Positions 22,110 to 63,600 of a DNA stretch of 64,000 nucleotides are shown here, one piece after another. The stretch is from Mobula hypostoma (Eukaryota), in the NCBI RefSeq assembly GCF_963921235.1, contig NC_086108.1:28274001-28338000 (forward strand), given 5' to 3'. Position 1 is the stretch's first letter, and each line of letters opens with the position of its first letter. The position numbers and the translations under genes are program-made. Under the pieces are notes generated by a model that saw only the letters and a program-made list of their open reading frames with translations, did not search any database and was not told where the DNA came from.

Positions 22110-23439
22110 TATGTATGTGCTGCACCTAGAACAGGTCATCTGATATGTTAATACCCAGGAATTTGAAGCTGCTAACTTTGTCCACTGCCAATCCCCCAAT
22201 CTAGACTGGTTTATGTTCACCCTTCTTCGACCTCCTAGAGTTAACAATCAGCTCTTTAGCTTTGGTGGCATTGAGCAACGGGTTGTTGTTACTCAACCAG
22301 GTGACCTGCTGTACCACAATCCAGTAAGTTGACTCATCATCACCTGTGATTCATCCAAGGTGCTACCAGTGAATTTGAAGAGGGCATGAGAACTGTGTTT
22401 GGCCATGCAGTCATGTGTGTGTAGAGTGCAGAACAGGCAGCCAGGCATTCAGCATTGAGACATACCTGTGTTGATGGTCCACAAGGAGGAGATGCTGTTA
22501 CCAATTCTTACTGATTCATGTCTGCCAATGAGGAAGTCAAGTGTCCAGTTGCAGAGCGAGGTACTGGGCCCCAGGTCTTGAAGCTGGATGCTGTATTTGG
22601 ATGGGCTGATTGCTTTTAATGCTGAGCAGTAGTCAGTGAACAGCAACCTGACATGAATTCCTATTGTCCAGCTGGTCTAGAGCAGAGTGAAGAGCCAGAT
22701 AAATCACATCTGCTGTTTACCTGTTGTGCTACTAGGCAAATTGGAGAAGATCCAGGTCATCTCTGCGGGAGGATTTGATGCATGCCATAACTAACTTCTC
22801 AAAGCAGTTGATATAAGTGCCACTGAATGGTGGTCATTAAGGCAGGTCACCATGCTCTTCTTGGGCACCAGTACAATAGACGCCTTCTTGAAACAGTTGG
22901 GATCCTCAGAGCATAGAAACAAGAGGTTAAATCTGGCCATAACTATTCCGCACAGTTTGTCCAATGAGATTTTTAATACTCAACCAGGTACACCATCTGG
23001 ACCAGGTGCCTTTTGGTGCCTCTCTTGGAGGATGCCCGGGCATCAGCCTCGGAGACTGAAATTACAGATTAGAGATGTGGTGGCTTGTTTAGGTGCATCA
23101 AGTTCTCCCTGTCAAAGCCTGCATAAAACGGGTTGAGTTCATTCAGAAGTGAAAGGTCATTGCCACTTATGCTACCTGATCTCGCCTTGTAGGAAGTTAC
23201 ATTGTGTAAACCGTACCACAGATGTCAAGCATCTGTCTATTATTCTAGTTGAGTCTGAAATTAACCTCTTTGCACTCACAGTAGCCTTCCAGAGGTCATA
23301 CCTGGGCTCGTTATATAACTCCTGGTCACCAGCCCTACACACCATGTTTCAACTCCAGTGTGTAAAAACAAAGCCACTGAATTTTTTTTTTCATTGTATG
23401 TACTATTGATTATTTCTTTGTTTTCTTTATGTCCTTTAG

Positions 23440-24260
23440 GTGCACTAAGTGAGGATCCAAAATTCCCAAAGATTCAATGGCCACCTCCAGACATGTGTGC
23501 GGACTGTCACAATGAGATCAATGGGCACCATGAGTGGATTTTAGATGCAGTGATGAACTTCCTCAATGTACATTATTCTCCAGATAATATAGACTACAGT
23601 TATCTTAAAGAGGAGGAGGAACTCCGGAAGAAGCAGCAGAAGGTGGAAGAAGATACTTGGCAGGGTCAAGAGAGGACTGTCCCAGAAGAAGAGTGGAAGA
23701 AAGACATAGATGAAGACAAGGGCAAGCAAGAAAAAGAAAAAAGCACAGAACAATCAATGATGAATGAAGAACGTCAAGTCAACCAAAGGAGTGTAAGGAG
23801 AATCAGAAGTCAAAAGAGGAGTTTTGTCAAGTGGAAACACACTGCTAGGAGGGATGTAGAAGATATTGTCGACCTGGACTTGTTTGTGAATGAACAATAC
23901 AAAAAACAAGCTTTGAAGGGCAGGGCTGAAAATGAGAGAGCCAGCATGATGAGCAAGAAATACCGTGGACCCCAACTGCACCTACAGTCCATTGATGAAT
24001 CCGGAGAGTCTAAGGAGATGCTGCAAAATTGGGTAGTCTGGGGTGGAGATAATGTCATTGCCAAGAAAAAATGGATTGGTCTGAGGGGGATGAACTTCTC
24101 CCGCATGGATACTGGCCTTTGTATTATGTTGTATTTCCTGACCGCTTTGTCTCTATTGTCATTGTACCTCTATTTCAAAATGATGTTTCGGTGTTGGAAA
24201 TTGAAATATTGGTTCGCATCAGCCTGTATTGGCATTAAATATAGCAGGGAAAGGAAGTGA
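23440..24260 (+). CDS. QSOX1: Sulfhydryl oxidase 1, terminal coding exon (end of ERV/ALR domain, charged linker, C-terminal transmembrane helix)
   Basis: Polypyrimidine tract plus TTTAG acceptor at 23439, phase 1. Translation GALSEDPKFPKIQWPPPDMCADCH...EDIVDLDLF...FSRMDTGLCIMLYFL matches QSOX family motifs, and WPPPDMC, EDIVDLD and FSRxDxxLC resemble non-mammalian QSOX1 more than QSOX2 (from recall). Stop TGA at 24258-24260. No upstream QSOX exon was recognised in 1-23439. Confidence 0.93.
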
Positions 24261-57822: not shown

Positions 57823-59892
57823 AAACTGGGGCACCCGGGTCAAAACCCATGCATTCCAAGGGAGAGACGTAAAGACTCCTTACAGAATGGCATCAGAATT
57901 GAACTCTGGACACTGGAATGACCCGAGCTGTAATAATGTCATGCCACCATGTAATATGCCACCATGTACTTGGGTATCTCAAGCCATCGAGATCGTTCAT
58001 ATAATGATTTAGGATACCTTCTCATTTTTGTCGACTGGAATGCCAACTTCAGCAACAACGCAAAGGGATTAAGGAAGTGCAGATGATGAATGCCTGAAAT
58101 AAGAACAGAAAAACTCTGAAAATTTTCAACTGGTCAGGCAACATCTGTGGAGCAAGACACAAGGTTGGAATTTCAGGTGAAAGCAGACCGGCAGAGCTGG
58201 TGATGCAACAGCATAGTGAGAAAGCAGTCAGTTTCATTACAAGATCTGTTAATGTATTCTCACGTATTCATTAAATGCTGAAAACACCTAGCAAGACAGG
58301 CAGTATCTGAGGAAGGGCCCCCCAGCTGAAATATTAACTCTGCTTTCTTTTCCACAACTGCTGACTGACATGTTGAGCATTTCCAGCATTCTCTTTTCAC
58401 CTCAAGGGAATAGGATTCAGATTCTGGGATAGCAACATCAGAATTAAACCAAAAAGAATGAAAATTAAACTCAGTTTGAGAATTAATATAAGCCCAATTA
58501 ATATAAACCCAAAATGCTGCAAATATATTTAATTCCCTAACACATTAAGTGATTGTTTGCAAGTATACCGATTTCTGTTTTATGATAAATAACTTTGATT
58601 AAATTATATGGATACAGGCATTTAGTTTTGTATATGATAATGCTTAATAAACAATTCAATCCTGACCAAGACAATATGGGAAATCTATTATGAAGTTAGG
58701 CCAAATGTAATTGAAGATGGGTGAAGAATAGTCTTTAAGAAACTGCTATTCTTTAAAATGAAGTGTGAAGTACAGTGATTTCTGTAAAACCAATTTTTGT
58801 CTGCTCTCTACTTCCCTTGAAAGGCCAAACATTGGAATCTGATGATAAGCTGTTGAAGAGGAGGAAGCATAGGTGGTGGTGGTGGTGGAGGTGGGGGCGG
58901 GGAGGCGGGGGTGGGGGGGGGTAGCTGTGAGAATTTCCTGTCCTCCTATACCCTGCTACCTGCTGAACACGCTTCTGCCAAATTATCCATTGATTTTAAA
59001 TTCATCAGTGGCTGCTTTGCTAGCACTAGGCTTAATTTCCCAAGATACCATTTAGGTTAAAGGCATCCTGTCAATAAAGTGCAAATCTGAAAACCCTTGC
59101 AAGCTTGCTCGCATGCTCCCTCCACCTCGCCATCTCTCACCTTCCCTCCGCACCATGGACCCCGTGCTATACTGGGCACTCGGCAGGAAAATTGTCTGAC
59201 GCTGTTGACTCGAAAGGAGATTAATAGGGCCAGTTCCCCTCAGTCCTGTACCCCACCATAAACTACCTCCCGGTTCCATTTCCCGTTCAATAATTACTTG
59301 ATGAGAGAGACTATGATGAATTCTATACATGAAATATGTCCGCTCCCTTTGACTCGTCGCTGTATATTAACCAGCCCAAGAAACCGCCGAGATCAACCTC
59401 TATAGAATTGCCCTCCCTGTCCTCAACACATTCATTTCATGGCTCCCAGTGATTATAAAAGAAATTATAAGACAACAGGTCATTTATCCAGGCGGCCAAC
59501 ACTGTCCCCCACCCAGGATGTAATCGACCAATTCTTTGAGGGAAAGCACGTGTCGGAGTGCAGTGTCATTGGTATCGGGCATTTGTTTTCCAACTAGAAA
59601 CTAATATTATTTCAATTTATACCCCGTATATAGATGAATATATTCCTGGTGTTAAATAACGTGTCTTTAAAGCACATTTGCTATTTGTAGATAGGCCTGC
59701 CTGTCATTTTTACGGCCTTTGGAAAATAGCTAGAAGAAAACTGACAATATTGCGGAGATAGAAGCCAAGAGTATGCGCAGTTTGCATGCGTCGTTCTTCT
59801 TGCAGTTGTCCGTACAGACATACAGGCAAACGATTGTACATAGGAGGCTTTCCATTAATTAAGGAACCAGAACGAAATGCTGTTATTTTTCC

Positions 59893-59990
59893 AGTCCTGA
59901 TAAAGGGTCTCGGCCCGAAATATTAACAGTTTAGTTTTTACCATAGATGCGGCCTGGCCTGCAGAGTTCCTCCAGCATTTTGTGTCTGGC
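59893..59990 (+). mobile_element. Single-arm Penelope-like fragment with mutated hammerhead
   Basis: AGTCCTGATAAAGGGTCTCGGCCCGAAATATTAAC...GATGCGGCCTGGCCTGC. Confidence 0.75.
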
Positions 59991-60523
59991 GTTATTTGTA
60001 TGTCGTTTGTTCACGTTTATATTAATAACTGTAGTTGGAATTAAGTGTTGACCGTGCAGTTAAATAGACCTGAATCTTTGCAAATAGTTTGAATAAAATT
60101 GACTACCTACTGATTTGTGCATAATACATCTGGGTCTATTTGCTTGTATGTAAACTAGAGGCGTTGTTGCGTTGTTCTTGATGTAAATTGATATATTTCA
60201 GACTTGATAGACCTTCCTCAGGCATAGACGAAGGTCCTATAGCTCAATACTTAATGCTCTCACACAGCCGTGCTATTATCCACACACATCATCGCCCATC
60301 TCCAAAAGGAACCATTTGGGTGCTGGGCTGACAATGTTGAAGGGTGCAGCGGTTGGTTAAGAATTTGTTTGTCCGGGTCACGATGACAGAAGCGAGAAAT
60401 ATTATTTTGTGGTGGAGGGGAGGATGGGATTGTTGGTGGAAAGGGTGGGCGGGATGGGGGGGTGTTGTTTTTGAAGTGACGGAAGGAGGACAGGTCCACA
60501 GCGAGAGTCTGGAGATCTCAGAC

Positions 60524-60626
60524 ATGGACAGCGAGAGGGAGCTGAGTTACCGGGAGCAAGAGACACAGAGTTTGAACAAAGATTTCCTGATGGCATTTCT
60601 GGGTCAAAACCAACAAATTGGAAACG
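60524..60626 (+). CDS. LHX4: Candidate first coding exon of the neighbouring LIM-homeobox gene (LHX4 by synteny), LHX3b-like N-terminus
   Basis: Strong Kozak context (GACATGG); 34 codons MDSERELSYREQETQSLNKDFLMAFLGQNQQIGN + 1 nt; phase-1 donor ACG|GTGAGA. DFLMAFL followed by 8 residues parallels human LHX3b DLLLALL-ARRADLRR|E. Lies downstream of QSOX1 on the same strand. The LIM exons are not in the window. Confidence 0.62.
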
Positions 60627-63600
60627 GTGAGAGAGGACCTATAGCCGGACAGTGTTAGAGTAAGATGTATTTACGAGCGTCTGTCATTGATATTCATAGA
60701 CCTAGCCTGAGCACGTCGACTGCATTATAACTCTGAGGGACGTCCTCGAAAAAATAAACAATTTATTTAAATGGATAGGTCGAAGTGAAAAATATTCCTA
60801 GCTACGGAGCATAAAAAAAGCAAATTTGCAAATTCTTTAAGTAGATCATTCCTCACAGATGCCACCCCCAATATCTCCCTCCCCCCCCCCACTCCCCACC
60901 CCCCGGTAGCTAGCCGGAACTGGGAATGGAAGACCCAGACCGGTGCTTTGGTCTGATCTGTACAGAATACCAAGTTAGGCTGATTGTAAGTATATTTATC
61001 AAACAGACAACGTGTCATTTCCCCCTCTTCTAAATAAATTTCATCGTGATGTATTTTTGTTGCTTCCTTGAATGTACAAGTTTAAACAGGCAAGATACAG
61101 TTACATAGTCAATTAATCCACAGGCGGATTTGTCAGGAGACAGCAATTCCCTAATAGCATTTGCGCCAAAGTGCAATTTAATTTTCTCTCTCTTATCAAT
61201 AGCTTTCTTCTCCATCTGACAATTACGGCGGCTGAAGGGGGGAGTCTGGCTTTTGTTTGTACTGTTTTGTCTTGTGATTTACCAGAAACAGACATTTTAT
61301 TTCTCTCTCTTCCTTAATCGATTGTTATCGTTATTATTATCGTGATAATTGCGAAATATGTAATTGTACAAAGTCCATCTGACTCCTCGCTGAAGGGTGC
61401 GTAGCCTGGTTGGGGTTCTGAGATCCAGTTAGCCGGTAGGTCTGATGTTCATTCTTTGCATTATACATCGCAGGAAGGGTGCATCTGATGGGAATCTTTT
61501 AATATCGAGGCTCCTACCCCGCTATTAGCCGAGTATTCCTGTCCTTTTCCCTGCCTTTTCTTGCTACTCATGCGGATCATATGTTTGCCTCAATATACTT
61601 AATAATAGTCTCACCCTAGAGGAGAAGGCTCGCGGTTTTTGAAAATACAGTATTTATTCCCAGAATCATTATTAGCTACAGAGGGAGAAATATAATCTAC
61701 AGAACGGCTTGTTTCTATTAACTATATGTAAACTTCAATGGACAGAATCGAATTACTTGGTTGGTTGTCCCAGTCGCGGATTTGCTAGTAGATAGGGCCC
61801 AAGAATAGAATCAATGAAAGTGTATTTCATACACAAATCAAACAGAACTGAGGCAGTGGCAGGAGACAATGCCTGTACTGAATGTACCACGATAACACGT
61901 GCAACACCCACCATTGCATTGAGGTTCCCCCCCGCCACGCTGAGTAGCAACTCTGGGTGTTAAATCTCTTCAATGGATATAAAAACTCATCGAACATTCC
62001 CAAGACATCAGGAGTAAAAACTCACATGGCTCGAATATAAACCCGCGACACCGGGTGTAGAACACACTGAGCGAAGTATGGCCCCGGCTGTACTGGGTTT
62101 AAAACTCACTTCAGCGGGTATGAAGTGGCAATCTACTCGGTGTTATCTCACTGGCTGAGCGTAGTCCCGCTTCTCAGCGGCGCTGTGAGATTTTTGTTGA
62201 ACAGTACTTCACAAAACGAGGAGCCGCTTACCAGATCACTCATTGCATGGAACCTGCTTTTTCCGAAATTGCTCGGACAATGCGGAAGTTAAATAAAAGA
62301 TCGCGTTCTTGTCCGGTCACTGGACTCACGTTCCGTCTGTTTAGCCATCTGATTCCTCTCGCACCCTAACCTTCTCATCAACATCAAGAGACCGAATCCC
62401 GGACACCGCTGTCCCAATCTGCAATGCATAGCTGCTGGAAGTTGAGAGGAACAGTTATTTTATTAACGGGGGTCTAAAATTTACACTTTGCAAAGTACAC
62501 CCATCTATTATAGTTCGGAATTCAGGGACATTTACAGATGATTTCGTGTGAAGAATGACATCCGTGATGTACTTTGTCAAATGAAGGTTTTATTAAGTGT
62601 ATACAGTATCTTAAGAATGTTGCTATCAGTACTAGTTCTTCGGCGATTGTTCAAAATCTATCAGTTCTTGTAATGAAACAAAGGTTCAGATTAGGATTGA
62701 GCTGCCGATATACTTGTTGATTAAATTATAATGCTCTCTGCTGCATACCACTCTGTTTTGCCTAATATGTAGAACAGTTCTCTGTAATACATTAATCCAC
62801 ACTGTACAGATAAGTTATGACACGTGTCTTCATCTTTTTCATGCTAACAGTAAATAGGCTTCCAGAGAACTTCAGTAGTTACAACACATTCAGAGTGTCT
62901 TGGAAAGAAGACAAATGTTGATATTTAAGTACAAGTCTTTTGTGTATGCAATATTATCGTCTATTTCATATCAGTCGGAACATCATTGCGCCCAATGTGA
63001 TACTTTACACTGATTTCCTTAATAGATTTATTTGGTACGTAAAATAATAATCCGTATTATAACACAGCAGATTCTGCCTATAATTTTCAGAACTTTTGAT
63101 GACAATACCCACTACTTCCTTTGATAAATTCTGCTCCTCCCCTTATGCTAAGTCAGTTCATTTTAGGATAAGTGTGCCTTCTATGTGGCTACGTCTGTAT
63201 ACAGTATATTCCGCCGTGTTTTTATATTTCTGTTATTATGTCAGATCTGCAAACAAATCAGGAGGTTTGCGATTAGGTTGGAAATAAATCAGATAAAAGA
63301 ACGTCCAGCTGTTGTATTTACTAAACAGCTGACCAATAGAGAGGATGTTCGTTCAGTCCATTCACGGAAATTTTGCTTGTTGAACTGGTTTTAATACAAA
63401 TCTTTGTGAGTGTAAACTCAAATAGCTATTTGAAGTTTAATTGTGTGAAAATCCATATGCCTGTTTTATCTCTTATGATGTGAGTGCGGGGATGTAAATT
63501 TCCATATTATTTACGTGCATTCTCTTTTCTCTCTACCCACGCCCCACCCCGTCAGCTTTTTCGACAACAGTTTTTTTTAAAATATATAACGCTTGGCACC

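Follow-up and report, generated by a model that had tools for sequence, protein, structure and literature searches.

LHX3 and LHX4 are developmental regulators of the pituitary and of motor neurons, and the 64,000-nucleotide stretch of Mobula hypostoma DNA analysed here (the window) raises the question of whether LHX4, like LHX3, can begin with a b-type first exon. The a/b isoform pair is in print for LHX3; for LHX4 our searches of the open-licence literature showed neither such a pair nor any report of a b-type exon. The segment at 60524-60626 is, in our reading, very probably an LHX3b-type alternative first coding exon of ray LHX4, with its LHX4 identity given by synteny and its splicing predicted. 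The candidate exon and its donor are as follows:

60524..60626, plus strand: predicted b-type LHX4 first exon, coding part (34 codons and the split-codon base G), from the sequence, the junction-anchored match and the invariance in relatives
60627..60632, plus strand: predicted phase-1 splice donor, ACG/GTGAGA, from the sequence; no difference is listed in four related organisms

The window sequence has a start codon at 60524-60526 in the context TCAGAC ATG G (60518-60527), with a purine at -3 and G at +4, and 34 open codons from this start are followed by one base, G, at 60626 and then GTGAGA. These are the Kozak ATG, 34 codons and phase-1 GT donor that an earlier note on this DNA had described, and the sequence confirms them with the same peptide. 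The exon sits inside a 105-codon stop-to-stop frame (60341-60658). Stretches of 15-45 codons running from an ATG to a phase-1 GT number 349 on the plus strand after 24,300, among which the candidate exon ranked sixth by the score of a rough donor matrix; an ATG with a phase-1 GT is common and not by itself beyond chance. What places the exon above chance is its junction-anchored match to gar and sturgeon LHX4, together with its invariance in relatives and its CpG-rich setting.

Other start codons lie nearby. The in-frame ATG at 60383 would give a longer start, which we rejected because a 4-base insertion after 60455 breaks the frame in two (X1 and X2) of the three relatives' contigs that cover the site. 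Out-of-frame ATGs at 60424 and 60454 also precede 60524, and could be upstream open reading frames if transcription begins before them.

We then turned to the gene next to the exon, which anchors its assignment:

23440..24260, plus strand: last coding exon of QSOX1, the synteny anchor, with a phase-1 acceptor, from 100% identity over 273 aa to XP_062919833.1

The protein matched, XP_062919833.1, is sulfhydryl oxidase 1 of Mobula hypostoma, and all 273 aa encoded at 23440-24260 are identical to it. Among the 120 matches listed to the QSOX frame (of 123 found), 97 were named QSOX1 or sulfhydryl oxidase 1, 23 were unnamed or otherwise named, and none was QSOX2, the call between QSOX1 and QSOX2 being made from the names and ranks of these matches. 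The identification of the upstream gene as QSOX1, proposed beforehand, is thereby borne out. QSOX2, for its part, pairs with LHX3. A QSOX1-type protein of the epaulette shark Hemiscyllium ocellatum, XP_060686104.1, carries the NCBI name 'LIM/homeobox protein Lhx4 isoform X1', which we read as merged gene models, and in the Nibea model P0157 QSOX1 is fused in front of LHX4. Because QSOX1-type models are tied to LHX4 in these shark and teleost records, we infer by synteny that the gene downstream of QSOX1 on the same strand is LHX4, with its gene body outside the window.

Only the last coding exon of QSOX1 was found in the window, with none earlier in 1-23400, and the last QSOX1 intron must therefore exceed 23 kb. 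Long frames in 1-23400 and at 24-58 kb resemble, by eye, remnants of reverse transcriptases and Tc1-type transposons. The acceptor of the last QSOX1 exon (23439-23440) is of phase 1, the same phase as LHX4 exon 2, so a splice running through from QSOX1 into LHX4 would keep the frame; the shark name 'Lhx4 isoform X1' may reflect such a splice or, equally, an annotation merge.

No LIM or homeodomain exon was found in the 64-kb window. Our searches of the window also agree with the prior observation that it holds no canonical MMQ-type LHX4 start, the best score for such a first exon being 12.6 versus about 70 between true members. The canonical ray exon either lies past 64,000 or has been lost or has diverged in rays. 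In the first case the b-type exon would precede the canonical one, the opposite of LHX3, in which exon 1a precedes exon 1b. The canonical LHX4 start is, by eye, unlike pig LHX3a, and possibly does not correspond to exon 1a.

Comparison proteins were gathered independently of the window peptide, in a homologue search seeded with an internal exon of a teleost LHX4 (locus L052, one of 119 metagenome loci fetched with a short homeodomain motif). The best 120 of 214 matches, together with the listed members (at most 15 each) from 19 look-ups in 18 clusters, gave 309 proteins, of which 155 included the LIM1 start and 134, one of them a slicing artefact, reached back 16 residues or more from the junction; 110 N-termini were of the canonical MMQ type. 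Among the matches listed, just two of the 134 LHX4 N-termini scored above zero against the window peptide: XP_058887917.1 (sturgeon, the sterlet, isoform X3), with a score of 30, and XP_015211910.1 (gar, isoform X1), with a score of 24. Both are predicted RefSeq models that carry no b-type label. Past the junction each agrees fully with the MMQ isoform of its own species, and at the junction it has Glu where that isoform has Gln; this replacement fits a swap of phase-1 first exons, and the window exon ends in G. The sterlet isoform is LHX4 by sequence comparison, being nearer to solved Lhx4 (278 bits) than to solved Lhx3 (255 and 244 bits).

The last 16 residues before the junction are KDFLMAFLGQNQQIGN in the ray, DELLLAFLEQHSQLHR in the sterlet and KEILLVWLQKQEQLHQ in the gar, with 6/16 identities between ray and sturgeon and 4/16 between ray and gar. 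We scored the last 16 residues of all 2,998 open 16-codon stretches that end at a phase-1 GT, on either strand of the whole window, against the gar and sturgeon isoforms together, and the donor of the candidate exon ranked first (score 54; next 27). This first rank held for anchors of 12-29 residues and became second for 10, the 16-residue anchor having been chosen after the match was seen; against gar alone the exon ranked 11th with a 10-residue anchor and third with 12. Sliding by one codon gave negative scores, and none of 200,000 shuffles reached 54. Counted from the junction, the peptide thus lines up exactly with the gar and sturgeon N-termini, in keeping with the phase-1 register proposed earlier. 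It had also been suggested that this lineage may retain a b-type exon in LHX4: the predicted exon is not peculiar to the ray lineage, since the gar and sturgeon RefSeq models have an N-terminus of this type.

The named proteins gathered from the matches listed included neither an LHX3 nor a shark or ray LHX4, and the two coelacanth entries gathered came without an N-terminus. Direct searches with the peptide gave no match in longer proteins, 50% representatives, the ESM Atlas, Pfam or an exact look-up; for a diverged start of 34 residues these are weak negatives, and the same searches also missed the gar and sturgeon isoforms, which are possibly not cluster representatives. A resemblance of the first half of the peptide to an internal stretch of LHX4 was taken as chance (E about 17).

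To place the peptide relative to the LHX3 isoforms we used pig LHX3b, which ends GDLLLALLARREDLRR before Glu-Ile-Pro (decoded by eye from a shifted font in the supplement of PMC4919287, and checked against the primer and the Arg26 of LHX3a given in the available text of that paper). Scored by hand with BLOSUM62, pig LHX3b reached 21 against the ray peptide (4/16 identities), 30 against sturgeon, 24 against gar and 32 against L001, a further reading frame introduced below, whereas pig LHX3a scored -20 against the ray; as a scale, the best chance scores were 17 for the sterlet alone and 21 for the gar alone, neither obtained with the pig peptide. The ray peptide carries a leucine-rich motif at a fixed distance before the LIM1 junction, as LHX3b does and LHX3a does not, and the contrast of 21 with -20 supports its description in the earlier note as b-type.

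The first seven ray residues are closer to pig LHX3b than to gar or sturgeon LHX4 and, taken alone, are also compatible with LHX3. Were the downstream gene LHX3, the exon would be an ordinary exon 1b; this resemblance, the location of the gene body outside the window and the lack of a ray LHX protein among those gathered all accord with that, but the neighbour is QSOX1, whose type of model is tied to Lhx4 in shark and teleost, and the C-terminal half of the peptide scores 30 and 24 against the bony-fish LHX4 isoforms and 21 against pig LHX3b. We consider an LHX3 identity very improbable, and, even if it were true, the b-type start would remain in gar and sturgeon LHX4.

The age of the motif was approached through L001, in which positions 178-1380 (L001:178-1380) form a complete Lhx3/4 reading frame, spliced and free of introns, that encodes two LIM domains and a homeodomain. 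It is 51-53% identical to vertebrate LHX4 and about equally near to solved Lhx4 (199 bits) and Lhx3 (197 and 193 bits), and we take this single record to be of a non-vertebrate, pre-duplication Lhx3/4 type. It ends SEVLLSLLARHKTLEA before the LIM1 start, in the same register as the ray peptide, and its motif scores 29 against sterlet, 20 against gar, 12 against ray and, by hand, 32 against pig LHX3b. Averaged over the three LHX4 motifs its score is 20.3, a value that only one of 66,498 unrelated 16-mers reached; the ray comparison on its own is weak, its score of 12 ranking eighth of 2,998 and being reached by 148 of the 66,498. Canonical LHX4 starts scored -13 to -25 against the b-type motifs. 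In a scan of 22 non-vertebrate loci no separate b-type exon was found (best 11.5), on contigs that are short and may miss first exons.

Convergence of leucine-rich helices, or chance, might in principle account for the resemblance between the ray, gar, sturgeon, LHX3b and L001 sequences: the comparison covers 16 residues alone, the anchor length was picked after the match was seen, and ray against L001 is weak. A shared origin is nevertheless indicated by the distance to the junction, fixed in five sequences, by a rank that is robust to anchor length and lost on sliding, and by the negative scores of other N-termini (canonical LHX4 starts at -13 to -25 against the b-type motifs, pig LHX3a at -20 against the ray), and we regard convergence or chance as scarcely credible. 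With the motif in L001, pig LHX3b and gar and sturgeon LHX4, all in the same register, the pre-duplication origin put forward in the earlier note is supported. The motif is apparently older than vertebrates; the one Lhx3/4 gene that preceded the duplication probably had it, and probably handed it on to both LHX3 and LHX4. Teleosts and amniotes probably lost it from LHX4 later, where its being missing from the sampled annotations does not equal being missing from the genomes.

Next, we compared the region 60150-60950 with contigs of four related organisms, taken from the six sequence sets (X1-X6) that share it (X7-X12 share next to none of it), and measured CpG content per kb:

60493..60643, plus strand: block without listed substitution or indel in the four relatives, made up of the coding exon, the first 17 bases of the intron and, ahead of the ATG, about 30 bases that are presumably 5' leader
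59001..63500, strand not assigned: CpG-rich stretch around the exon, likely promoter region, from CpG observed/expected

None of the 40 listed variable places (of 43; the tallies fully account for contig X6, and for contig X1 up to 60587) falls within the exon, and none of the nine indel rows listed for 60150-60950 lies between 60493 and 60643. A gap of at least 151 bases free of variation arose in 0.16% of 100,000 permutations. For the union of the four relatives, 0/103 bases vary in the exon and 40/586 in the flanks (Fisher p 0.0013), and contig X2 alone gives the same contrast (Fisher p 0.006); the relatives are close (mostly 90-95% alike) and of common ancestry. CpG observed/expected was 0.63-0.86 per kb at 59-63 kb versus 0.05-0.42 in each kb of 24-59 kb, and the exon lies in the sole CpG-rich stretch of the 24-64 kb measured. 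CpG-rich DNA is expected around developmental promoters, and the stretch is likely a promoter region. These results indicate that the exon is a real and constrained sequence.

The kind of constraint is a separate matter. No synonymous change occurs in the exon among the four relatives, and with relatives this close coding and regulatory constraint are indistinguishable and dN/dS is not computable. No RNA record appeared among the listed sequences that share the region, a result with no bearing on expression. The block could accordingly be a former b-type exon whose splicing ceased in rays and which was retained as promoter or regulatory DNA, as the spread of invariance about 30 bases upstream and 17 bases downstream of the coding part, synonymous sites included, would allow; yet there is no damage to the ATG or its Kozak context, to the open frame, to the spacing of the motif or to the donor, variation returns near both exon ends, and the window yielded no other LHX4 first exon. 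We give such a relic only a slight chance and retain the reading of a spliced first exon. A second well-placed ATG occurs in the highest CpG bin, at 62078-62123, with 13 codons and a phase-1 donor (CGG/GTATGA); this mini-frame showed no match to known LHX4 starts.

As a working model for the b-type exon of ray LHX4, a promoter in the surrounding CpG-rich stretch would start the transcript, translation would begin at 60524, and a phase-1 splice would join the exon to the LIM1 exon beyond the window, its last G completing a Glu codon with exon 2. The resulting Glu-Ile-Pro junction would be that of the gar and sturgeon isoforms, and a short hydrophobic helix would be placed directly before LIM1. 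The motif of this helix consists of an acidic residue followed by hydrophobic-Leu-hydrophobic-small-aromatic-Leu, fixed 15 residues before the junction. In the AlphaFold model of the sturgeon isoform, residues 19-34 are helical at low confidence (pLDDT about 57); the lone ray peptide was modelled as all helix, which carries little weight given that short peptides often fold so, and modelling the peptide in complex with the LIM1-LIM2-homeodomain part of that isoform gave a score of 0.00, which speaks neither for nor against contact.

On the model of LHX3b, such a helix may make a weaker or differently partnered LHX4. The b-domain is reportedly the 'isoform-specific inhibitory domain' of Sloop 2001, said to restrain the full protein both in binding DNA and in activating targets. 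In its available text PMC2330153 merely cites that study; DNA binding and target activation by LHX3 are described as isoform-dependent in the accessible parts of PMC3405102 and PMC5356396, and pig LHX3b as repressing two pituitary promoters in one cell line in those of PMC4919287. For the ray peptide we hold a damping role to be about evenly balanced, because the hydrophobic block is kept and the arginines are not, and its activity may differ from that of LHX3b because the arginine-rich end is missing. The five-way alignment singles out a few b-domain residues as candidates for the inhibitory action, namely the hydrophobic block and not the arginines.

If this reading is true, the b isoform is ancestral and the usual single LHX4 start is a product of loss, making the pair a clear example of duplicates that diverged when one of them dropped an isoform, and the feature extends beyond rays to gar and sturgeon. 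A broader and more doubtful proposal is that the helix is an ancient Lhx3/4 module older than vertebrates, that both copies kept it through the vertebrate genome duplications, that LHX4 lost it separately in the teleost and the amniote line, and that in rays it sits in perhaps the main or only LHX4 first exon, giving by default the damped form that mammals produce from LHX3 alone. Kobayashi 2010 may already contain a comparison of chordate N-termini.

Of the closest known systems, the gar X1 and sterlet X3 LHX4 isoforms share with the ray exon the paralogue (by synteny), the register and the best peptide matches, but differ from it in their N-terminal halves; gar and sterlet also have a canonical MMQ start, and the ray window shows none. 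Mammalian LHX3b (exon 1b) resembles the ray exon in its short alternative N-terminus, which meets the LIM1 exon at Glu-Ile-Pro (a predicted junction in the ray), in its acidic residue and hydrophobic block 15 residues before that junction, and in Glu-Leu at positions 6-7. Unlike LHX3b, the ray exon sits beside QSOX1, at the LHX4 position, and encodes 34 versus 31 residues (human LHX3 isoform lengths appear in the available text of PMC5356396); its peptide ends in polar Gln/Asn and pig LHX3b in an arginine-rich stretch, and the window has no recognised 1a-like exon upstream, in which LHX3 differs.

Older parallels come from lineages that separated before the duplication. Ascidian Lhx3/4 has, in the available text of PMC4356046 and PMC10810493, alternative first exons from separate promoters and no vertebrate duplication; Drosophila Lim3A and Lim3B likewise have alternative first exons and separate promoters, and LHX3a and LHX3b are called their homologues in that of PMC2935391. 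The proposal that the a/b switch predates the LHX3/LHX4 duplication is thus supported by the motif but is not new in itself, alternative first exons in pre-duplication Lhx3/4 having already been published (PMC4356046, PMC2935391). What is new here is the b-type exon in LHX4 and the match at the level of the motif; the accessible parts of the ascidian and fly accounts contain no motif comparison and no mention of an LHX4 counterpart. Both systems have in common with the present model one Lhx3/4 gene that uses more than one first exon, in animals whose lineages did not undergo the vertebrate duplication.
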